Part shown: positions 3,071 through 63,700 of the stretch, one piece after another
Position numbering within the stretch: position 1 is the stretch's first letter
Layout of the letters: each line of letters begins with the position of its first letter
Assembly (NCBI GenBank): GCA_028020825.1
Contig: CM051622.1
Coordinates: 17,888,261 to 17,952,260 of the forward strand
Length of the DNA: 64,000 bases
Source of the DNA: Podargus strigoides
Lineage: Eukaryota
Direction of reading: 5' to 3'
Position numbers and translations under genes: made by a program
Notes under the pieces: model-generated
Told to the model about the DNA's origin: nothing
Databases searched by the model: none
Seen by the model: only the letters and a program-made list of their open reading frames with translations

Positions 3071-6000
3071 TTTTAATCTTGAAATGTCTGCAGTGAGGGA
3101 GGAACGGAGAGAACGGAGCATTCTCCGGCTTTCTGACGCTTTGTGCTTTAGGCATGCTCTGTTTTACTGAGAGAATCAGTGTTTCCCTCTGCACTCCAGT
3201 AAGTGGCAGAGTGTCACTCTTCAGAAACTCGTGGTATGTCGCAGGCTGTCACCTGTTTGCAGCTCTTCTGGGCAGGTACAACACCGAGTTCTCAGCTGTA
3301 TAAACCCAGGGCAGCCCTTGCAGTTACCTACTACTAGTTTTAATTTCTGCTGTTACTTTCTGTAGTTCTACACGGGTGTTTCTGCTAAACTTGCCATTAT
3401 CTTCCCTGCACTGTGCTTTTGTCAGTTATAAATACACTGTCTACGTGATTGTCCTCAGACTGCATTCTGTATTAATAGTGGGAAGCAACAGTGTTAGGAA
3501 ATACAAGGATTTGTACTCGTGCTTTCTTAAAGCACAGCATCACATTTAGTCACTTTGACGTCTTCAGTGGGAAAATACAGTAGGGGTTTGTTTCCAGTTT
3601 ATCTGCACACTGAAGGCCTTACAGGACTACAGACTATTCATGGTTTGTTGTTGGATGATAAATATTTTTTCTGGCTCCCTCTTGAAGTGCTGGGGTCTGA
3701 ACCCCAAGCCCTGAATTAAGGTTGACATAGGGGTGGGCCCCATGGTCCTTTAAGAGGAGGGGATGAGTTTGCCTTTTGGCTTTCCTCCAAGGTGTGGCCG
3801 GCCTTGTAAGGAAAGCCCTTGGGTAAACAAGCCCCAGGTGCCCTGCATTGGGTAAATGAGTGCCAGGCGTCCTGCTTTGGGCATAAAAGCTGGGATGCAC
3901 CTCACCGAGTTTTCTGTTGGGGAAGGACCTCCTGCCTCCTTGTGCATCTGGATCCCAGTCAGGTCTGGCACCTACAAATGCAGGCTTTGTGGGGAGGCAA
4001 CATGGGGTTACCTCTATCGTATGTGATCACCCTATTGACTTGGTTGTCTCCCATTTTTTCTATGGGTTACCTTGTATCTTTGTTTATTCCATCCATTACA
4101 GGTCATGCTATATCATTCCTGGGGTCGCTGGGGGTGATATCTATTATTTGTTATCTGACTTGTTTGTACCCCCAGCGATCCCCTATATACTGACTCCTTT
4201 ACGTGCAATAGAATCTACTTACTGGATTGTTTTTCTGCTGCTGGCTGTGTCCTTTGTACTGGGCCTAGTAATTGGCAAAACACCTCTCCATGCTAAAAAT
4301 ATAATCCCTTGCTAACGGTGGTGTTGAATTTGTGGTTTGATCATGAAGTACAAGCTTGTGTGAAATCTCTTTGAGGCTACTAGGGCCTTACGAATCTCCA
4401 CCAGCATAAATTAAAATTGTAAGAATTAAACCAGTGATAACTGTCAGTAGTTCTACTTTGTGTAACTTCCTTCTCTGGTGCTGCAACAACACCATATTCC
4501 AGTTATAAAAGTGTTTATCAGCAGTTAATTAATTCTCAACCCACAGATTAAATACAATACTTTTCTATTGTGATTTTGAATTTTGGAAATTTTGCCATTC
4601 AAAAAGAGTAAAGCCAAACACTGCTGAAATTCCTCGAGAAGTTTGGTTCTCTAGGGAATAGGGGGAGAAAGGCTACTATTCAGTGGTAGCGTTCATCAAT
4701 AATGAAAGAGAATAAAGTCTTCACTCAAGAGAATAGAAAACTGCAGAGGACAGGCTTTGAACAGATTTTAACTCAATTTCCTACTCTCTGTCAAGTATTC
4801 CAAAGTTCACTTGTGCTTCAACAGCGGGCAGTTTCCTCTTCCTTCCAAGTGCAGTGAGGGTGAGTGTTCCTTACTGTGCAGTAGACTGCACTTTGCTTGG
4901 TTTATTTATTTGACTGGGTTGCTGTCCCTTCAGGCATTTTGCAGGGAGGTATGAGTGCGTCCTAGCCCTTCCTACCTGCAACACCCAGGCTTTCCAGTTG
5001 TACCTCCCACTGTTGGGGAAGCAGGAAGATCCTTCAGGGAGGGCAGCTGCCTGAGCAGGTGAGTGTAAACGAGCTGGCTCCCTCAAAATCTAAAGAGAGG
5101 AGTGGAATGAGGGGTCATTTAATACCTCTCATGCTGCAAACAGTGAAGGGGAAGTGTCTCTGCAGGCAGACTTGAAGCAAATAGATCACTCAAGTTTACA
5201 CATTCCTTTCTGCTTACTGGCTGACAGTTTATTTACAAATCAGTTCTCACATTTTTTTTCCTCATTTCTTAGCAGCTTGATTTTCATAAGCAAATGTAAT
5301 ATAAAATACTTTTGTGGCATTTTGCACAACATGTAGCTACCAATTTTGGTTGCTTCTGGTGTTTTCCAGGAGATCTGGATGTATAGGCAGAGTTGATGTT
5401 GCAGTTGGTTGTATGTATTTCATTGCCTTCTAATAAACTTGTTATTTTGTCTATGCAAATAGAGTTCATTATGTCCTGAGAAGGCAACTTCTGGTGATGC
5501 TTTAGCACTATCCAGAATCTTTAGATTTAGAGAATATATTGAGAAAACTAGTGCACACAGAGCCCTACTGAAGAGGGAGGCCCAGATCTATACTATGGTT
5601 ATTAAAGGAAGCCTTTGGCAGTGGCAGATTTGCCTTAAATTAATCTGTCTTGTTTGTGACAAGATTCAAAATAAAGTTGATAAAAGCAGCTTAAAGTAAG
5701 AGTTTATGCCACAGAGTAGAGCTTCTTAAAGGTACCATTTCCTGCCGAGCCAAGTTAGGACAAGGCTGCATCGTAAAAGATCTTTATCACCTCAGATAAC
5801 ATAGTATCTTGTGAAAACCTCTTAGTTAAAATATGGAGAGTTGGGTTTTTTTTGTGTGAGCAGAGGGTACTTTTATGCCAAAAGCACTGCTAGTGCCATA
5901 AAAAACAAAAACAAGAGGCACAAAATATAGGTATATGAGTGCTCTCTGCCTGACCTAAATGCATGTATTACTGTTGCAGAGTTGCCAGTTCTATCAGGTG

Positions 6001-23598: not shown

Positions 23599-24035
23599 GT
23601 AAAAGTTTACATTCCCTTTTTTGTGACATTGACTCAGGCTTAACTGTATTCTTAACTATATTTTGACTTTTAAATTTGTTTATTTTTATGAAGCTTTTTT
23701 GCAGTATGTTTAACCTAGTTTTTACTGTTAACATTTATATGAACATCCATATACTTCTACAGACCTCTGGAAGGAAAATCAACCTTTTGTAATGATATAT
23801 TTAATTCCTCTCCAGGTATATTAGACTTGAGATGCAGGTATTTGGATATGATGGTGAGGAGTGTGGTTTAAATCCAGATGAAAGGTGACAAAATGGAGAG
23901 AGTAAGAAAGCAACAACTGTGGAAAATTTATTATGTTTTAGGAAAGAATTGCACTGACAGCGTCCTCCTTCGACTTACGTACATTATTTCCCCATGACTA
24001 CTTTATTTGGCATATTTTTAGATTATCATAATTTC

Positions 24036-42384: not shown

Positions 42385-42557
42385 GTAAGTAAACCAGTCT
42401 AGTTGTATTCTAAAGAACACTTCTTTGTGTGGCATGTTTATCATTGCAAAGCTCTGTTATGCAACTTTTACTCTTTTGTTCTTTTTCTTTAGGCCAGCTT
42501 CTAAAATCTTTCTGTAATTTAGTCTATTTAAATTCTCTTTTAACAAGCACAGCCACA

Positions 42558-43362
42558 TCTGCTGGAGAGTTGGGCGGGGAGAAATTTAATGAAATATAAC
42601 AAGGGCAAGTGTAGAGTCTTGCATCTGGGTAAGAACAACCCCATGTGCCAGTATAAGTTGGGGACTGACCTGTTGGAGAGCAGCGTAGGGGAAAGGGACC
42701 TGGGGGTCCTGGTGGACAGCAGGATGACCATGAGCCAGCAATGTGCCCTTGTGGCCAAGAAGGCCAATGGCATCCTGGGCTGTATTAGAAGGGGTATGGT
42801 TAGTAGGTCAAGAGAGGTTCTCCTCCCCCTCTACTCTGCCCTGGTGAGGCTGCATCTGGAATATTGTGTCCAGTTCTGGGCCCCCCAGTTCAAGAAGGAC
42901 AGGGAACTGCTTGGGAGAGTCCAGCACAGAGCCACAAAGATGATTAAGGGAGTGGAACATCTCCCTTAGGAGGAAAGGCTGAGGGAGCTGGGTCTCTTTA
43001 GCTTGAAGGAGACTGAGGGGTGACCTCATTAATGTCTATAAATATGTAAAGGGTGAGTGTCATGAGGATGGAGCCAGGCTCTTCTCAGTGACATCCAATG
43101 ATAGGACAAGGGGCAACAGATGCAAGCTGCAACCTAGGAGGTTCTGCATAAATATGAGGAAGAACTTCTTCACAGTGAGGGGAACAGAGCACTGGCACAG
43201 GCTGCCCAGAGAGGTTGTGGAGTCTCCTTCTCTGGAGACATTCAAAACCTGCCTGGACATGTTCCTGTGTGACCTGACCTAGGTATTCCTGTTCTGGCAG
43301 GGGGACTGGAGTAGATGATCTTTTGAGGTCCCTTCCAATCCCTAACATTCTGTGGTTATGTG
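42558..43362 (+). mobile_element. CR1 LINE 3' fragment (~0.8 kb), sense, in PARP4 intron 23
   Basis: ORFs 42589..42969 (…[19 protein letters not shown]) and 43088..43282 (…[30 protein letters not shown]). 3' tail ccaatccctaacattctgtgg. Confidence 0.85.
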
Positions 43363-51933: not shown

Positions 51934-52029
51934 ATGAAGAAACAAATCTTGAAAAACATGATCGTTCACCTCAGCTTGGAGAACTCAATTATAAGCCAGT
52001 TTACAAGCTTCGTTGCAGTTGAGAAAAGG
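51934..52029 (+). CDS. PARP4: PARP4 exon 29. Product MKKQILKNMIVHLSLENSIISQFTSFVAVEKR
   Basis: Acceptor aacaatctag| and donor AGG|gtatgt. Human has MKKQTLKSLIIKLSKENSLITQFTSFVAVEKR. Confidence 0.85.
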
Positions 52030-52431
52030 GTATGTTTTCTATATATCTTGTTCCCACTAGCTTCTCTGTCAAAAGACTCTGAATTCTGTAACCTTATATC
52101 AAAACCAGTCTTCCTTTTGCTGAACAATGATTATTCTTTTGCAATAGAGCTAAAACTATGATTTTTGACATTATTTTGGTTTCTTTTGCAATATATGCAA
52201 ATATATACTGTCCACCTTTATATTTCATGTGAATCTAATTACTGACAATACATTATTCCTCAATGTAGTAAAAAATGTGAAGTTACATTTACTGATCTTT
52301 TGTATATACTGAGTATTTTTAATGTGTTTATTCCCTGTTTTCAACACATTTCAAACTCACAAATTAAAAAGCACTGTCTCTATAATGCCAGAGAATTTCC
52401 AGGTGCTTAATTGTGATGCATTTTAATTTAG

Positions 52432-52578
52432 GATGCTAATGAAACCTCTTTTGCTGATGCTCCAAATATCCTGGAAATTATAGCTCAAGAAGATGTAGAT
52501 TTTTTACCTTACATGGATTGGAACCAAGAGTCAATAGAATCTGGCTCACTTCCAGAGAACTTTGCCTTTGGTGCTGCG
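52432..52578 (+). CDS. PARP4: PARP4 exon 30. Product DANETSFADAPNILEIIAQEDVDFLPYMDWNQESIESGSLPENFAFGAA
   Basis: Acceptor ttttaatttag| and donor GCG|gtaact. Human has DENESPFPDIPKVSELIAKEDVDFLPYMSW. Confidence 0.8.
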
Positions 52579-54597
52579 GTAACTACATTTAATATACATT
52601 ATTATTGCTAAAGTTTTTGGTATATTATCCAGTTGTGGTGCTGTATTGTATATGTAACTATATAGTAATTATTCATGAAATCTGTTCAATTTTTAATTAT
52701 TTTGAATATAATTAATGCCACACAAGTACTGTGTGGAATTTTACTATAAACACAAAAATCTGGAGGAACCTGTCCCAAAAATAAAGTACACTTAAAAATA
52801 TGAGTGCAGCAGAAGTTTTAAGAGACAATGTGATAATACAGACTTCTCCTTTCCAGAAGAAACTAACACACCTCTTATAGGAATATGCTAGTGTAGATGA
52901 AGCCTTCAATTCAACTCTAAGAAACTGGGTGGGAGAAGGGGAAGTTTCAAGGAAAATCAAGGTATTTATCCATAACTAAGTCTCCACTTAGCAGAGAAGA
53001 ACTGCCAAAGCAGAGAAACTAATGAGAATGGGGATAAGCATGACTGGAAGAAGAGGACATACTGCTAGCATGCAATGGGACAGTCTTTGGGATGAGGAAG
53101 GAGCAATAAGAGAAACTTGAACTAGTGAAATTAGATGTTTGCTAGTTATGGTAGTGCTCTCTTAACTTTGGAAACTACAAGAGATGCCTGCATCAGTGTG
53201 AGAAACGAAGTTTTAGGCCGAAAAAGTTTGCTCAGGCAAGGATCACGGTGAAGCAGCTCCGTTTATTCGCGAGTGCAATCGCGGGCGCGCCACCCCATGG
53301 CCGAAGTAGAAACGCGCCCCGTTACAAAGAAAAGGAAGCATTTTTATAGTATTTTCTCCCGACGCGGGTTATCCTCTCCTGTTTCTCCACTGGTTGGATA
53401 CTCCAGGCTCACAGCCTATCCGACGCATTCTATTACAATAAGTTTCCGTAAGAGGTTTTTCCGGTTTCCATAATAGGTTTTTCTTTTACCAGCCGGCTGT
53501 TTATGCATAGTTGTGGAATGATGGAAGTATTTTCTCAGGTGCACCCTATCTCCTGATCCCTGTAAGACACAACATTCTAAGAAAAAGTTGTTATGCGTAG
53601 CTCTTGTCCTTCTACATTATCTGGTACCAGGATGTACTGAATAAGACAGTCTTTATCCTGGGCTCCTTTCTAGTTTGGTATTTTTGTACAAGGCCTTGGT
53701 GTTTTTCTTTCCGTAGTGCTGCACAAAAAAACATCAGTCAGTTCTTACATCCTTCCATGCTATCGAGCACTTCGATGTACAAGGCAGTGGTGTTTTTCTT
53801 GGTTCTACAAAAATATGATTCTCACAACACTGCAAAAACACAAGCTGTTTCTCACATCAGTTAGCCAGCAGGTATAATTCTGTCAGTTTGTGAAGTCTTA
53901 ACAGATTAAAGCTTTAGATCTCCAAATTGTGTAGGGGACTCAAGAAAGTCATTATTTGTCTATTAAATTATGTTGTGCGTAACCATGATGTGCATTTAAT
54001 ACAACTCAAGAGCATCATCTTGGCCTGTAGTCTGCAATGTATTACGGTGGTGAGCTATTTAGAACAATATCTGGATGTGTGTACTGTAAGTGGGTGAACT
54101 CGTATAAAGCCATTTTCCTGATCCAGGAAGAGTACCAAACGTATATGTTGGTGTATGGTAGCAGCATAGCTCAGGCTCACTAGCTTGTATGCAGCAGCCA
54201 CTGGACCTCAGCTGGTACGTGTGCCAGAATTGCAGAACAAGCAGGATCCATCCTTCACTTTGTGTAGATCTGTCTTCTGTGTATGTACAACAGGATTGTA
54301 CAGTGGAAATTCCTTGGCTCATAATCATCATTATATTAATAATTTTTGTCTTAATAATGTAAAATACCTCTCTGCTCATATTTTGTCACTGTCAAATTTT
54401 CCTCTGAATTTGCCCAGCATAAGGTAAACGAAGAATTTCTTACCTTATTCTAACTGATACATTACTTTCATTTTGAGCATATGAATGATAGTATAATGAT
54501 ACTGGAAACAATATAAGAAATACTATTTTGATTAAAAAGAGAAAAGTATTTTACTAATTCTGGAATTGTTTTGTTTCCTTGTACTTTTACTAAACAG

Positions 54598-55197
54598 GCG
54601 TGTTTCACACAACTAAACGCTTTCATAAGCAAGAAGGGTGAACCTGAAAGCTTCCATTTTCACCCTGAAGAAGTTCCTGTTGGTCAAAAGAGTGTCTCAC
54701 CAAAAATCATGGCGCAGGGCTTTGTAAATGTTTCTGAACCTGAAAGTAGTATTTGCGGTCTCCAATCAAATGTCAGTTTTGATAGAGACATCACAGAGGA
54801 GAGATCACCTGGATCAAGGTCACCTTTATCATATGACCTTCATCTGCTGGAAGCTGCTGAACCTTCCTTGTCATTTGGTTTTAAACCTGAGCCAGGAATT
54901 GATCTGACTCAACAAAAATTACTTCAGTCACCTGCACTTACAAAATCACATGCGAATGTTCCTGAACCTGCTCCTTCTCCTACCCTTCCCTATTCTTGTT
55001 CAGGATTGTTTGGTTCATCTACCCCTACAAGCAGAAATTCTGAAAAGACTAATGTTGAAAAACAAATTATTCCCCAAATTGGTTCGCGAGCTGGTACAAA
55101 AAAAGCATCGTTACGGTTCAAGTGTAAGAAAAAGATAGTACATACGCATGATGATACGGCTCCTGAAGAAGGATTTACTGAGGAGTTTAAGGTTGTG
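54598..55197 (+). CDS. PARP4: PARP4 exon 31. A 600-nt exon of 200 codons encoding the S/P/E-rich disordered region (ACFTQLNAFISKKGEPESFHF...RFKCKKKIVHTHDDTAPEEGFTEEFKVV)
   Basis: Acceptor ttttactaaacag| and donor GTG|gtaagt. It is an uninterrupted ORF (track 54571..55230) in phase 0 at both ends. The C-terminal end resembles human ...KCDTKDDSIPCFLELKEEDEIV. Confidence 0.75.
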
Positions 55198-55299
55198 GTA
55201 AGTCTTCCATCAGTAATCTGTTATATATAGGATGCTATGCGTGTCATGTTGAAATCCAGGCTGCATTCAGCCAATGAGAGCTGCCTTAAACATTTGCAT

Positions 55300-55396
55300 T
55301 TAAACACCTGCTCCAGGTGAACCTGCTTTGGCAAGGGGGTTGGACTAGAGGATCTCCAGTGGTCCCTTCCAACCCCCACCATTCTGTGACTCTGTT
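55300..55396 (+). mobile_element. Short CR1 3'-terminal fragment (plus)
   Basis: ggcaagggggttggactagaggatctccagtggtcccttccaacccccaccattctgtgactctg. Confidence 0.6.
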
Positions 55397-56784
55397 TCAA
55401 GGGTCAGGGATGTACAGCCAAAAAAGAACACGGTAAGGCTGGTAAGGGGTCTGCTTTCCAGTTCAAAAAATCTAAACCTGAAATGCAGAAAGCATTGTTT
55501 TTGTTTGGTTGTTTTTTAGTTAGTCTTTTTCAAAGTGGTAAGTCTTATACTCTGAGTTCTGCCACTTGTTCCGTACTACTCTAATAGGAGACTTTTAAAT
55601 GGAATTACTTTCTATTATAAAGTAGTAGCTATTTGGGTAATGGTGGTAGAATAAGATTTCTAATGGGTATTACTCTGCTTGTTCTGGATCAGCCTTGTTT
55701 TATGCAAACACAGAGGATTCAGCAAAGTCGTCTGCTCAGTTCAGTAAATAGAAATGAAATTCCTGAGCTCCAAAATAAGGGGCAGTACCCATTCATGCAT
55801 TACCTAAAAATAAGATAGGAGTATAAGGAAAAATTATCTTTGGCCCTGCCCTGAGATAAATATTTTGTAAATGATTTTGGTTTATTTGTTTTACAAAATG
55901 TTTTTATAAAGAGCATGTTGACATCAAAGTCATGCTATTTTTGGTTCGTTTTATGGGCAATCCATCGTGCTTAGGAAGCAGTATAAAATCACAGCCAACA
56001 AGTGGTGATCACATCTCCAGAGTCAAATTTTACTCTGGATTTGCCCAATGTAAGGTACGAGAGGGTAAGAAGTTTTTATTTTAAACAATTTTTTTTTTTC
56101 ATTTTGAACATACAAATGACAGTATAATGATAATGTGCAGAATACAAGAAGACATACAGTTTTGATTAAAAAGGGAAAAAATGTCTCACTAACTCTGGAT
56201 TTTTTAATTTTTTTTTTAATAAAAAGGAGTGTTTTTTAAACTTCTAAATGCAATTACTTTGTATCATGATGTAGTAGCTGCATGGGTAATGATGGTAAGA
56301 TTCTTAGTTAACATTATCCTCTCCAGCAACAACCAGGGTGCTTTAAAAGAACAGAAAAAGAAAGGATTCAACAGAGAATTGAGTTGACTCCTGTAAACTG
56401 GAAAGAAATTTTTGCACTCCAAAATCAGGTACAGTACCCATAGTCCATTTGTGCATTACTTAAAATATTTTTACTTTAATCCTGTCCGGAGATAAAGTAA
56501 AACACATTTATAACATGTTTATAAACAGATCTTATAAGTGTGTGATGATATCAGACATGCTATGTTTTATTTCACGGGCAACTTGGCAATGGATATTTAA
56601 GGAACAGTATAAAATCAGGGCCAACAGGTACTAATACATCTCGAGAGCCTTTTTACAGCCTCCATCACTTTGCAGCTTGGGGACGTCATGGGACAAGTAT
56701 AAAAACATATAGGGGAAGCTAAGTGGAAGAGGTGGATACACATAATGTACATTATGCAAGAAAATTAATAGTAGTTGGTTTTTA

Positions 56785-56883
56785 GAGGATTGGACTGAGA
56801 GATGTTGCAGCAGGAACTTCCCCTGGACGATCAGACCAATTGCTGGGGAAACTGAATGAAACGTACTGTCCAAGAATCCTGCA
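56785..56883 (+). CDS. PARP4: Tentative PARP4 exon 32 of 33 codons (RIGLRDVAAGTSPGRSDQLLGKLNETYCPRILQ). A small exon equivalent to human ...QDAVPWTELLSLQTE is expected between exons 31 and 33
   Basis: Acceptor ggtttttag| and a weak donor CAG|gtagca. Entry and exit are phase 0 as required. The similarity is weak (DVAAG...QLLGKLNE against DAVPWTELLSLQTE). An alternative frame contains PWT but ends in a stop codon. Confidence 0.25.
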
Positions 56884-57366
56884 GGTAGCAATCAGAGCAG
56901 GAAATGTTCAGCTTTGTTGCTTTTGGTATGTCCTTTGTGGTGGGAGAAGTCCCTGTTCTGTACACTAGATTCAGTAAGTCTTTCAGGTGCCCCAGCTTCA
57001 TGTTCCGTTGTGCACATAGTACTTGCATTCTCATGACTCTTTCTTGTTATTTTTTTTAAAGCATTGCTTCGTTCAGTGTGGAATTAACTTTTATTTTATG
57101 TATTAAGTTTGTATGTGAAAGTAGTAAACTACAGCCAACCTCAGCATTAAGAGATATATATTTTTCCTATATTTTTGACAGGACATTTTTATCAAATTAT
57201 TTCTAAACATTGAACCATTACTATATGCCACATGGATACAATGGGGATTAGAATAGTAGACTTGTGATTGACTCCTGTGGGAATGAACTCCTGAAGTGCA
57301 GTTCAAGATTTCTTTCTTTTTTCAGCAGAATTGCCAATGATTGAATTTTAAAAACAAAAGTTTCTC

Positions 57367-57388
57367 TTTTTTTTTTTTTTTTTTTTTT
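57367..57388. repeat. poly(T) tract
   Basis: Homopolymer run. Confidence 0.95.
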
Positions 57389-58215
57389 CACTAATTAAAC
57401 TTAACATTCTACAGATTTTCACTTTTTACATAATTTGGATAATTAGTATCTAAACATCCATTTAAAATCATATATTGTCTTCTACATTACCCTAAACGAA
57501 TGGTTATAAATCTGTGTCTACAGTTACAGTTTTCTAAGACATAAAGCTGCAAGGACAGGTAGAGTTTCAAAAGTATTTAATATTGAAGAATAAGTACTTC
57601 ACCATCCTGTTGAAAGCCTGTTTTCCATCTAACCTGAGGGTAGCAAACCATTTGGCAGATAATTTTAATCACGAGAATTGTCTAATTTTTGGCAGTGAAA
57701 GTCAGATAGAATAGGATTGGTTTTGTTACTACTACGTTTACCAACATATATAGTGAATGTAATAACTGTACAGAGACTTTGTATTCTCAGCAAAGGAGAG
57801 GGATCCTTTATTGTTTCTTTTGAGTAAGAAGAATGCTTATTTTTTAGCACACTTAAAAATAATTTTAGGAAAGAATTCATTTGAAATAAAGTTGGAAAGG
57901 TTACTGTTGTCATTGTGCATATTTTATATAGGAGTGATTTCCAAATGACTTTATTCTTACTGTTCAAGTGTTTTTTACAAGGTAGGCTAACTACAACATT
58001 CCAGGTCAATAACAGATGTTTGATGGTATATCAAAGGCTTTCGAAGTTTAATATTTGAACCTCCTATATTGATTATGTGGATTTCAGTTTTTGTGTTTGT
58101 GCAAGCTTTTTAAAAAATATTTATAGTAATGCTCCTGTGTCCATTTTGTTCTTGCCAAATACATTTTCAGTGTCCTGAATCTTTGGCTTTATCCATATCT
58201 TTGTTTGTTCCATAG

Positions 58216-58318
58216 GATGGCTCTTGGAATCTCAGTCCACAGTTGGGAAAAATCTTGAAATTTGATGTTGATCATTTAATTAACAATTTCCTTATTAGAA
58301 AAGGCATTCAGTCACTTG
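58216..58318 (+). CDS. PARP4: PARP4 exon 33. Product DGSWNLSPQLGKILKFDVDHLINNFLIRKGIQSL(G)
   Basis: Acceptor tttgttccatag| and donor g|gtaaat. Human has DGFWKLTPELGLILNLNTNGLHSFLKQKGIQSLG. Confidence 0.8.
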
Positions 58319-59193
58319 GTAAATACTTTTTTTGGTCATTAAAAAGCAGTACATTGTGTTATATTTCCCATCTGTATGTGTTATTACTGTGTATGTGTAG
58401 TGGAACTCTCAACAAGATATGCTCAGAATTTAAATGGATCTCTTAAATGAGTTTTCAGAAGTGCCTGATTTTAATACACTGTCTTCTTAACTTCTCTCAC
58501 AATTTAGTGTCCTGACTGCTAAGCACATTTCCTGGAGAAATGTGTGGAGGATGTGAGATAGTTGGAATAGCAATAGAGGTGCTTCTATCTCAATTATTGT
58601 ATCTGCTATATTAATATCTACTAAAGAAAATAAGGGAAGAAATGTCTCTCCTAGGAGAGAGGCAGAGGTCACTTCTGCTTTTCACATTTCAGACCATATG
58701 ATTAATATTTATATAATTCTTCCCACACACACACTGTCTGCAGCATTCAATATGCACTCCACCTATAGACACTTCGCTCTTCAGTCCTGTCAGTGCTCTT
58801 TGCTAGCAGCAGGCCAGACAGCTTGTGGGGAAAAAAGGGCAATTCCTTCTTACTAAATTACTAGAGGGCACAACGCTTCATCAAAGGTCAAAAATCTTAC
58901 AAGTTTCCCATTATTGCATGTATTAAAATCAAAGTAGATTAGAACCCAAGCAAACACAAACTGCAAAAACCCCAACAAAGCACTACCAACTTAAAGTTTG
59001 AAAGCCAGGAGCATGTTTTTCAAATCACTAATGTGAATACTCTTGATGGTGGCGATTGTATGGTGAAACAATTAAAATAGCATTAGGACAACTGATGTTT
59101 CAAGGTGAAATGGAATACTTTACAGAAAGTACCTCTTCTGTTGTCAAGAAATCATTTAAATAGTAATACTGCTTCCCTTTTCTTCTTCCTTAG

Positions 59194-62559: not shown

Positions 62560-63700
62560 CTATGAAATCTACCAGGATTCTTTTTCCTAGTGCGACCCCC
62601 TGTCCCCCCGCAGGACCTCGCCCCGGGGTGTCCCTGAGCGTCCTTCCCGGGCCTGGCCGCAGCACCTCCCCCGGCTGGGGAGAACAGCTCCTTTGTACCG
62701 GGACATTCCCCGCGCCCGGCCTGTTCGGCGGCCAGGCCAGGCCGGCCCGGCACCCCCTGGCCCGGCAGAGCGGTCACCGGCGTGAACGTGCCTCTAGGTG
62801 CCTCCGGTCACCGCTCACCGCCTCCTTTCTCCGCAGCAGGACAGCGACCCCGACTCGGGAGCCGAGCGAGAGTTCGACCCCACTTTCGAGGAAGGGGTCC
62901 CCGGGACAACGTGCGGACAGGCAGCGCCAGCGCGGTGAACCGCGGCGCCCAGCACCGGGGTATGCGGCAGGCCGCGGACAGCCGCTGCCTTCCCAGCCTG
63001 GGCCCCGCGGGAGCCCGCGGCCTCTAGGGAAAGACCACGCCCCCAGCCCCCTGCAGGGCCTCCCGCTGCCGCGCTGAGGGCACGAAGGCCTCCGGGCTCG
63101 GGGCCCCGCCCCTGCGCGTCACGCGCTGCTGAGGCGCCGATTGGCCGCAGCCGCCGCCTCGCTCCCGCCTCGCCCAGCGGCGGATGTCGCAGCCGCCCTG
63201 CACCGTTGTCGTTTGAAATTCGGCCCAAAATGGCGGCGGCGGCGGCCGGGAGCGGGGCTGAGGCAGCGGCAGCCAGGCTGGAGGGGGCGGAGGAAGAGGA
63301 GGAGACGGCGGCCGCGGCGGAGGATGAGGAGGACGGGGAGGAAGACGGCGGCGGGGCAAGCAAGGTGCCGGACGCGGCGACGGCCGGCGGGGAGACGGGG
63401 GGCGGCGAGAGCGAGGAGGAGGAGGAGGACGTGTTCGAGGTGGAGAAGATCCTTGACGTGAAGACCGAGGGGGTGAGTGCGCGGCGCCGCCACCTGTCAC
63501 TTCGGCGCCCCCGGCCGGTCTCCGGGCGGGGCGGGTCTGGCGGTGGCCCCGGGGCCGGGCTCGCCGCTACACGAGGCGGTGCGCGGGAGCTGGGGGCGGC
63601 GGTGCCCGTGCGGCCGCGGGCCGGGGGGCGCCTGCCCGGTGGTGCGGTCCCTCGCGGGCTGCCCGGGCATATCGCTGCTCGGGGGTTCCTGCACAGGTCT
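62560..63700. promoter_or_regulatory. MPHOSPH8: CpG island and promoter of MPHOSPH8. It has an inverted CCAAT box (ccgATTGGccg, 63140-63144) and a GC box (ccccgcccc, ~63103-63115) about 90-130 bp upstream of the ATG
   Basis: Extreme GC and CpG content. The motifs were read directly from the sequence. Confidence 0.65.
63230..63472 (+). CDS. MPHOSPH8: MPHOSPH8 (MPP8) exon 1, 81 codons. Product MAAAAAGSGAEAAAARLEGAEEEEETAAAAEDEEDGEEDGGGASKVPDAATAGGETGGGESEEEEEDVFEVEKILDVKTEG. The donor GGG|gtgagt is at 63473
   Basis: Kozak context aaaATGG. The Ala-rich start, acidic tract and the beginning of the chromodomain (human has GEDVFEVEKILDMKTEG|GKVLYKVRWKGY) all match. The window ends in intron 1. Confidence 0.7.

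Follow-up and report, generated by a model that had tools for sequence, protein, structure and literature searches.

A two-copy relic of a probable old tandem duplication of the large PARP4 exon in Podargus strigoides

Tandem exon duplication followed by the decay of one copy into a pseudo-exon is a general phenomenon, known from surveys of duplicated animal exons, and most of the tandem duplications catalogued so far came to light because both exons were intact or alternatively spliced. The repeat described here, located in a window of 64,000 nucleotides (the whole stretch of DNA analysed) from Podargus strigoides, is an ordinary relic of this kind, that is, an evolutionary scar. An exon whose length is a multiple of three has been doubled head-to-tail together with its flanking intron, one copy has been kept, the other has been disabled by deletion and stop codons, and the homology of the flanking intronic sequences is the visible trace of the event. 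In contrast to the catalogued cases, three other species keep only a stub of ~64 nt of the second exon copy and the window keeps nothing of it, so that the duplicate is betrayed by its flanks alone. The arrangement also recalls a minisatellite or a large-period array, with which it shares head-to-tail direct repeats and a period of several hundred bases; it differs from them in having two units only, in its age and in its stable copy number in the four species.

The host gene is PARP4 (vault PARP). Its BRCT, PARP catalytic, VIT and vWA exons follow each other in this order, with Pfam matches to BRCT_2 (4.5e-10), PARP (1e-29), VIT (5e-18) and VWA_2 (7e-9), and its best match is human PARP4 (E 1.6e-73, vs about 1e-11 for PARP1/2). 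Exon 30 of human PARP4 encodes a disordered region under recurrent positive selection, and the length of the largest PARP4 exon varies greatly across vertebrates, birds included (Daugherty et al. 2014, PMC4038475); whole-exon duplication goes unmentioned in that paper ('exon duplication': 0 occurrences). The large exon of the window occupies the place of this ancestral largest exon. It is the positional equivalent of human exon 30 (residues ~1217-1583), the preceding exon aligning with human PARP4 residues 1182-1217 and the next one with residues 1583-1616, which places it between the vWA-proximal part of the protein and its C-terminal, MVP-binding part; the equivalence is one of position only, because sequence similarity to the human exon is undetectable. 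A profile of the exon translations of four species retrieved nothing at E <= 10 from the PDB sequences, full-length human PARP4 among them, and no Pfam domain was found in the segment encoded by the exon.

The comparison was based on four species, i.e., the window and the orthologous contigs of three others (L001, L002 and L003). A protein profile search for further orthologues returned the same three proteins again, and a metagenome scan yielded merely two extra contigs, belonging to the species of L003. In all four species the exon is open without stops and its length is a multiple of three (600, 693, 822 and 687 nt, i.e., 200-274 codons, vs about 360 in human); all of its indels are multiples of 3, and the donor GTG|GTAAGT is conserved. 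The pairwise dN/dS of the exon ranges from 0.98 to 2.59 (Nei-Gojobori, 141 gap-distant codons); for 3/6 species pairs, the value 1 lies outside the bootstrap 95% interval. The exon is therefore similar to human exon 30 in gene, position, dN/dS above 1 with the frame kept, and strong length variation, and dissimilar in its shorter length and in its sequence.

The features of the duplicated region, in window coordinates, are the following:

54392 to 56021, + strand: unit 1, composed of A1, exon, proximal intron and B1; 1630 nt (junction alignment, homology blocks)
54392 to 54565, + strand: block A1, intronic, 5' of the exon, a solid paralogue of A2 (nhmmer E 3e-43)
54566 to 54597, + strand: polypyrimidine tract, branch-point-like TACTAAA and true acceptor (...ttccttgtacttttactaaacag|G), read from the sequence and conserved in the four species
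54598 to 55197, + strand: coding exon, the 'largest exon' of PARP4; 600 nt = 200 codons, a single open frame
55589 to 56021, + strand: block B1, intronic, paralogue of B2 (nhmmer E 4e-126); homology begins at ACTTTTAAATGG
56022 to 56648, + strand: unit 2, composed of A2, scar and B2, exon copy lost; 627 nt (blastn, junction, nhmmer)
56022 to 56208, + strand: block A2 (nhmmer E 1e-51 for 56022-56199)
56208 to 56209, + strand: breakpoint of a window-specific deletion of 105-108 nt (best single-gap alignment, the same vs L001, L002 and L003)
56210 to 56239, + strand: A/T-rich filler between the old pseudo-exon and B2, aligning with TTTCTTTTTAAAAAGAGGAGTGG 3' of the pseudo-exon in L001-L003
56240 to 56648, + strand: block B2 (nhmmer E 4e-107; blastn vs B1 E 2e-26)

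Taken together, these features point, with a probability of roughly 85%, to a two-copy relic of an old tandem duplication of ~1.6 kb that included the large exon of PARP4 and whose second exon has decayed. The repeat is neither a four-unit array nor the place where the exon was born, and no decoy acceptors derived from it are retained in P. strigoides; all three had been proposed in an earlier note on this DNA. The significant direct repeat reported there for 54117-56650 does exist. Positions 54391-54620 (A1) match 56022-56251 (A2) with 70.6% identity at an offset of +1631 (blastn E 4e-29), and positions 55591-56033 (B1) match 56240-56656 (B2) with about 63.5% identity (E 2e-26) at an offset of +649 that shrinks to +626; the local-alignment z-scores of the two blocks vs shuffles are 31 and 41. 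The expected off-diagonal of ~650 bp is thus present in the form of the B1/B2 pair, whereas the one of ~980 bp is absent, the second offset really being 1631. The copies are adjacent, colinear and identically oriented, and the junction between unit 1 and unit 2 is clean (...CTCCAGAG|TCAAATTTT..., breakpoint ...GAG|TCAAATTTT).

The array of about four units that had been suggested for this region resolves into two. Profile HMMs (nhmmer --max, 8 copies for each block) found each block exactly twice in every one of the four species, and no further copy in the 64-kb window, where the next best match has an E of at least 0.06. Smith-Waterman alignments vs shuffles and the profile HMMs disclosed no extra degenerate unit at 53700-54390, at 56657-57400 or in the exon-bearing interval. 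TRF reported no array in 52000-59000, a result that is uninformative here, its maximum period of 500 being shorter than the 630-1630-nt unit. A true array of three or four units, in which the exon and the proximal intron would descend from B and A and have diverged strongly, might find some support in the marginal match between the first 45 nt of the exon and 56230-56274 (p about 0.02) and in the expansion of the exon by internal repeats in L002. However, the interval 54598-55577 resembles neither A nor B, whether compared pairwise (z from -0.3 to 2.0) or with the eight-sequence profiles at maximum sensitivity in four species, the signal at an offset of ~980 bp is missing, and the exon start has its true homologue in the unit-2 stub of the other species, not in B. 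The multi-unit array is thus largely refuted, and we consider it extremely unlikely.

On the evidence of the window and the orthologous contigs, it is very unlikely that the two blocks represent insertions of an interspersed repeat (a transposable element). Neither the 64-kb window nor 5-12 kb of the three orthologous contigs contains dispersed copies of either block, the copies lie side by side in the same order and orientation, neither terminal repeats nor a reverse-transcriptase signature was found inside A or B, and in the orthologues unit 2 contains a piece of a host-gene exon.

The content of unit 2 in the other species discloses what was duplicated. The arrangement is common to L001, L002 and L003, whose unit 2 keeps a copy of the acceptor (...TTCATTCCTTGTAATTTTGCTAAACAG|G) followed by a stub of the exon, roughly its first 64 nt. 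The pseudo-acceptor is intact in L001 and L002, and its AG is mutated to AA in L003. In L001, positions 2668-2926 and 4308-4570 are 79% identical, in an alignment that runs unbroken through the acceptor and on into exon sequence. Homology of the stub covers exon nt 5-64 (z of 11.4 in L001 and 5.1 in L003); the stub of L002 is not significant alone (z 0.8 vs the real exon), the start of the real exon having diverged in this species. Reading the L001 stub in frame reveals a TGA at codon 20. With the second copy so reduced, the four species do not carry a pair of mutually exclusive or alternative exons, which would both be intact, with splice sites and an open frame. Since unit 2 of three species retains the acceptor copy and ~64 nt of the exon, the exon belonged to the duplicated unit and was already present before the duplication. 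Thus, the proposal that it arose within the repeat does not hold: a pre-existing exon was itself duplicated, leaving a pseudo-exon remnant in unit 2. Its placement within a locally duplicated segment and the copying of the region upstream of its acceptor are confirmed; its origin in the repeat is not. An expansion by duplication can be observed on a smaller scale, in the in-frame tandem repeat (45-nt x 3.9) inside the exon of L002, and not on that of the array.

The opposite polarity must also be considered, i.e., that an ancestral segment made up of A, a short stub and B was duplicated, and that about 925 nt then entered unit 1, building most of the exon by means of an existing AG. Such an insertion would agree with the gap of only about 115 nt between A and B in unit 2 of L001-L003, and with the lack of detectable similarity between the exon and human PARP4. 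However, the inserted piece should have prolonged an open frame by >530 nt in phase and also supplied a consensus donor; a large, length-variable exon is reported at this place across vertebrates, birds included (PMC4038475); the neighbouring exons bracket human residues 1217-1583; and parsimony strongly favours a single deletion, in a copy that was redundant. The insertion is, in our opinion, very improbable.

The duplication followed by decay can be described by the following series of events. One head-to-tail duplication of about 1.6 kb would have occurred within PARP4 in the common ancestor of the four species, involving a segment that would have begun about 205 nt ahead of the large exon and ended about 820 nt past it, so that the whole exon and both its splice sites would have been copied. 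The upstream copy would have remained the working exon, and the downstream one would have undergone an internal loss of about 925 nt, between about exon nt 65 and the beginning of block B; unit 2 would then have consisted of A2, the pseudo-acceptor, the ~64-nt stub, an A/T-rich filler of ~50 nt and B2. A second deletion, of 105-108 nt, would later have taken the pseudo-acceptor and the stub in the lineage of the window; today A and B flank the exon in unit 1 and abut directly in unit 2. The anatomy of the units, their shared ancestry and the order of the events are established by the alignments, and the duplication itself was probably due to unequal exchange or replication slippage. The loss of the second exon copy was presumably tolerated or favoured.

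The second deletion bears on the decoy acceptors that had been suggested. According to the earlier note, the acceptor region recurs at 56012-56262. This is correct for the ~175-200 bp 5' of the exon, which recur at 56022-56199, and incorrect for its first ~30 nt: their match at 56230-56262 is the marginal one mentioned above, obtained with a hand-picked 45-nt test, and the position is not homologous. With the deletion, the window has lost the pseudo-acceptor together with the ~64-nt remnant of the pseudo-exon and some of the filler, so that unit 2 no longer contains any exon-homologous sequence. A different placement of the gap, sparing the pseudo-acceptor and removing the stub alone, gave a lower score against all three orthologues and is less likely; since the flanks are A/T-rich and of low complexity, it keeps some probability, and the endpoints of both deletions are uncertain by roughly 10-30 nt. 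The AG at 56228-56229 sits in the filler and is best aligned to an AG located 3' of the old pseudo-exon. Since the copied acceptor went with the 105-108 nt, the 'decoy' at 56227, regarded as a retained acceptor AG, is most likely not homologous to the true acceptor. The ~50-nt filler between stub and B2 is assignable to no part of unit 1, with which a forced global alignment yielded only scattered matches of 5-13 nt.

As for the weaker copy assigned to 55540-55600, neither side of the acceptor has a counterpart there: the first 45 nt of the exon vs 55578-55622 gave p = 0.72, and the 45 nt before the true acceptor vs those before 55577 gave p = 0.63. What lies at this place is the first ~14 nt of B1, and the AG at 55576-55577 is no copy of the true acceptor. 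In unit 1, the intron between the exon and B1 measures about 390 nt.

The divergence of the blocks indicates that the event is old. The units are 23-26% diverged; the p-distance between A1 and A2 copies is 0.19-0.30, and JC distances span 0.10-0.16 for orthologues and 0.27-0.31 for one copy compared with the other. Distances between paralogues are the same within and across species, and the copies cluster by copy and not by species, which argues for a single old event without gene conversion; no variation in copy number was observed among the four species. Orthologues of A and B have diverged by about 0.10-0.16, on a par with the exon at its synonymous sites (0.10-0.19), so that their rate looks neutral, and both blocks are probably neutral. 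Decoy splice sites, or intronic splicing regulators governing exon inclusion, might still be a present function of the retained copies. The A2 orthologues (orthologous identity 81-87%) are slightly less diverged than those of A1 (mean p 0.095 vs 0.148), the four species share an acceptor-like CTCTAAYAG|G at 55569-55577, and two orthologues retain an intact pseudo-acceptor. Against this stand the neutral-looking rate, the origin of the 55577 site, which does not derive from the duplication, and the fate of the pseudo-acceptor, which is dispensable, having been mutated in L003 and deleted in the window. Such a role is thus highly unlikely, and we infer no present function for the A and B blocks.

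The relic of the tandem duplication is of modest interest, because the duplicated exon is the positively selected, length-variable one of PARP4. Together with the 45-nt repeat of L002, it shows that duplication and deletion, acting at several scales, alter this segment besides substitution, which bears on the diversification of disordered host-pathogen interfaces. As the exon is a multiple of three and both splice sites would have been copied, the duplicate could have been spliced in with the frame kept. It is conceivable, even if rather unlikely, that an ancestral PARP4 harbored for a time two in-frame or alternatively spliced copies of the exon, and that complete pairs might survive in some bird or reptile lineages; two copies would have doubled or diversified the proposed pathogen-recognition surface. 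A warning for annotation also follows, since unit 2 of related species still has a good predicted acceptor leading into a dead stub.

One further element is located in the same interval, outside the duplication:

55305 to 55393, + strand: LINE 3' end fragment; six more copies in the window, absent in L001-L003

The fragment, which we take to be CR1-type, was inserted only in the lineage of the window, 55304 adjoining 55394 in L001-L003, and one of its window copies stands directly 3' of an RVT_1 ORF.

The stretch 53700-57100 of the window was read by repeat detection and self-blastn, which disclosed two colinear direct repeats in the PARP4 gene. In a sensitive self-blastn search, block A1 (54391-54620) matches A2 (56022-56251) with 70.6% identity at an offset of +1631 (E 4e-29), and block B1 (55591-56033) matches B2 (56240-56656) with about 63.5% identity at an offset moving from +649 to +626 (E 2e-26); the local-alignment z-scores against shuffles are 31 and 41 for the two pairs. 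A2 adjoins B2 directly, and about 990 nt, exon included, lie between A1 and B1. Alignment of the three boundaries gave a clean unit junction (...CTCCAGAG|TCAAATTTT...) and the following limits:

54392-56021, 1630 nt: unit 1 (boundary alignment)
56022-56648, 627 nt: unit 2 (boundary alignment)
54598-55197, plus strand: the 600-nt coding exon in unit 1, 200 codons in one uninterrupted frame

The earlier note had described an array of about four units of ~650 bp. Profile HMMs for A and for B, each built on eight copies and searched with all filters off, found exactly two copies of each per species and no further copy in the 64-kb window (next E at least 0.06); moreover, no A/B-like sequence was detected upstream, downstream or in the exon-bearing interval (z −0.4 to 2.0). 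The structure is therefore a tandem duplication of two units and not of four. TRF reported no array, but its maximum period is 500. The profile and shuffle tests, over the window and the orthologous contigs, disfavour both the birth of the exon from a multi-unit array and the reading of A and B as transposable-element copies.

The exon is bounded by ...ttccttgtacttttactaaacag|G at its 5' side and GTG|gtaagt at its 3' side. Other plus-strand exon fragments match the Pfam BRCT, vWA, VIT (5e-18) and PARP catalytic (1e-29) domains, and the gene is identified by sequence as PARP4, since the catalytic piece fits human PARP4 (E 1.6e-73) far better than PARP1/2 (~1e-11). The flanking exons, at 52432-52608 and starting at 58216, align to human PARP4 residues 1182-1217 and 1583-1616, respectively, which places the 600-nt exon at the position of the human exon-30 region; the equivalence is positional, because no sequence similarity between the bird-type exon and human PARP4 was detectable.

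Using the exon translation as a protein query, three ORF calls were retrieved on contigs L001, L002 and L003, which are orthologous genomic DNA of three other species with introns 80-88% identical to the window; a profile search and a metagenome scan added contigs only from the species of L003. The order A1-exon-B1-A2-B2 is common to all three, with about 115 nt between A2 and B2, 105-108 of which are missing from the window. In the three contigs, this missing segment opens with copies of the polypyrimidine tract and the acceptor (L001 TTCATTCCTTGTAATTTTGCTAAACAG|G; L002 CTGAACAG|G; L003 CTAAACAA|G, the AG being lost in the last), followed by a ~64-nt pseudo-exon remnant, or stub. The stub is a homologue of nt 5-64 of the exon, with a z-score of 11.4 in L001 and of 5.1 in L003; that of L002 is not significantly similar to its own real exon, because the start of the latter has diverged. 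In L001, an uninterrupted alignment of units 1 and 2 (2668-2926 and 4308-4570; 79% identity) extends from where A begins through the acceptor into the exon. The acceptor copy, the stub and this continuous alignment together show that the exon belonged to the duplicated unit, and its insertion into unit 1 is disfavoured. Copy 2 then lost everything between about nt 65 of the exon and the beginning of B (~925 nt in L001), and ~50 nt of A/T-rich filler stands in its place. The repeat is thus real, but it is the unexceptional remnant of a tandem duplication of the exon. The data are compatible with two working exon copies, during some past period or in a living lineage.

Single-gap alignment against each orthologue places a window-specific deletion after 56208/56209, with endpoints uncertain by ~10-30 nt because the flanks are of low complexity; the 105-108 nt lost take in the stub, together with the final ~21 nt of the pseudo-acceptor region before it and some of the filler after it. 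On this alignment, and within the same uncertainty, the AG at 56228-56229, previously taken for an acceptor copy, descends instead from AAAAAGAG|GAGTGG, a site that lay beyond the 3' end of the old stub. The weaker copy claimed at 55540-55600 consists of two separate things: B1 truly begins with 55589-55602, whose paralogue is 56238-56262, and 55533-55577 does not resemble the true acceptor region (p = 0.63). An acceptor-like site does exist at 55569-55577 (pyrimidine-rich tract and CTCTAAYAG|G). It is conserved in the four species, lies ~290 nt beyond the exon donor at the ancestral spacing and is followed by an in-frame stop 10 codons on; it is unrelated to the duplication. Decoy splice sites with a function are likewise disfavoured by these tests.

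The JC distance is 0.10-0.16 between orthologous copies and 0.27-0.31 between the two copies. Since paralogue distances are the same within as across species, a single duplication without later gene conversion is indicated, which on a rough neutral clock would be about twice as old as the four-species split. Neutrality of the intron blocks is argued for by their divergence, which is close to the synonymous rate of the exon (dS 0.10-0.19). In unit 1, the window differs from the other three species by p 0.17-0.20 (A1) and 0.13-0.145 (B1), these species differing mutually by 0.09-0.12; in unit 2, unlike unit 1, it is equidistant from them. This extra divergence could reflect a locally raised rate beside the selected exon, or sampling noise.

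The exon frame is open in all four species, with an identical donor and lengths (600, 693, 822 and 687 nt) that are multiples of three. The orthologous exons are:

L001, 2878-3570
L002, 618-1439
L003, 3439-4125

Nei-Gojobori dN/dS is 1.2-2.4 over all aligned codons and 0.98-2.59 on the 141 codons at least 3 positions from any gap, the bootstrap interval of the latter excluding 1 in three of six pairs. Third codon positions differ less often than first and second ones, dN (0.18-0.28) lies above synonymous sites and flanking introns, and the frame is kept despite many indels. Daugherty et al. [quoted passage not shown] The fast non-synonymous change matches this published selection; the coding behaviour reproduces known PARP4 biology and adds nothing to it, the remaining interest being that the positively selected exon is the duplicated one. 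In L002, 1091-1266 of the exon is an in-frame 45-nt (15-codon) tandem repeat (3.9 copies, 82% matches) whose units encode a SVAPMQGFVFGSATR-like motif; just one degenerate copy (SGLFGSSTP) is present in the window, at the equivalent ~55008/55009, and L001 and L003 about one more.

The intronic segment 55305-55393, 107 nt downstream of the exon donor, has six further copies in the window, one right after an RVT_1 ORF. As it is missing from all three orthologues, it is a fragment of a LINE 3' end that was inserted in the window's lineage alone; the source family of this fragment is represented in PARP4 introns by reverse-transcriptase ORFs:

24032-26074, plus strand: 681 aa, RVT_1 match at 5e-32
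~30976-33052: reverse-transcriptase ORF
~42544-43279: reverse-transcriptase ORF

Further upstream, ~640 nt at 53198-53834, holding a direct repeat with a spacing of 91 nt (53685/53776) and a tandem repeat of 22-nt units (53442-53483), are missing from L001 and L003, and L002 is without ~1040 nt equivalent to 53180-54216; the difference at 53198-53834 may be an insertion in the window or deletions in the others. Downstream of PARP4, a short GC-rich open frame at ~63230-63470 on the plus strand (MAAAAAGSG...DVFEVEKILDVKTEG), for which Pfam gave no match, looks like the first exon of a chromodomain protein, possibly the neighbouring gene MPHOSPH8.
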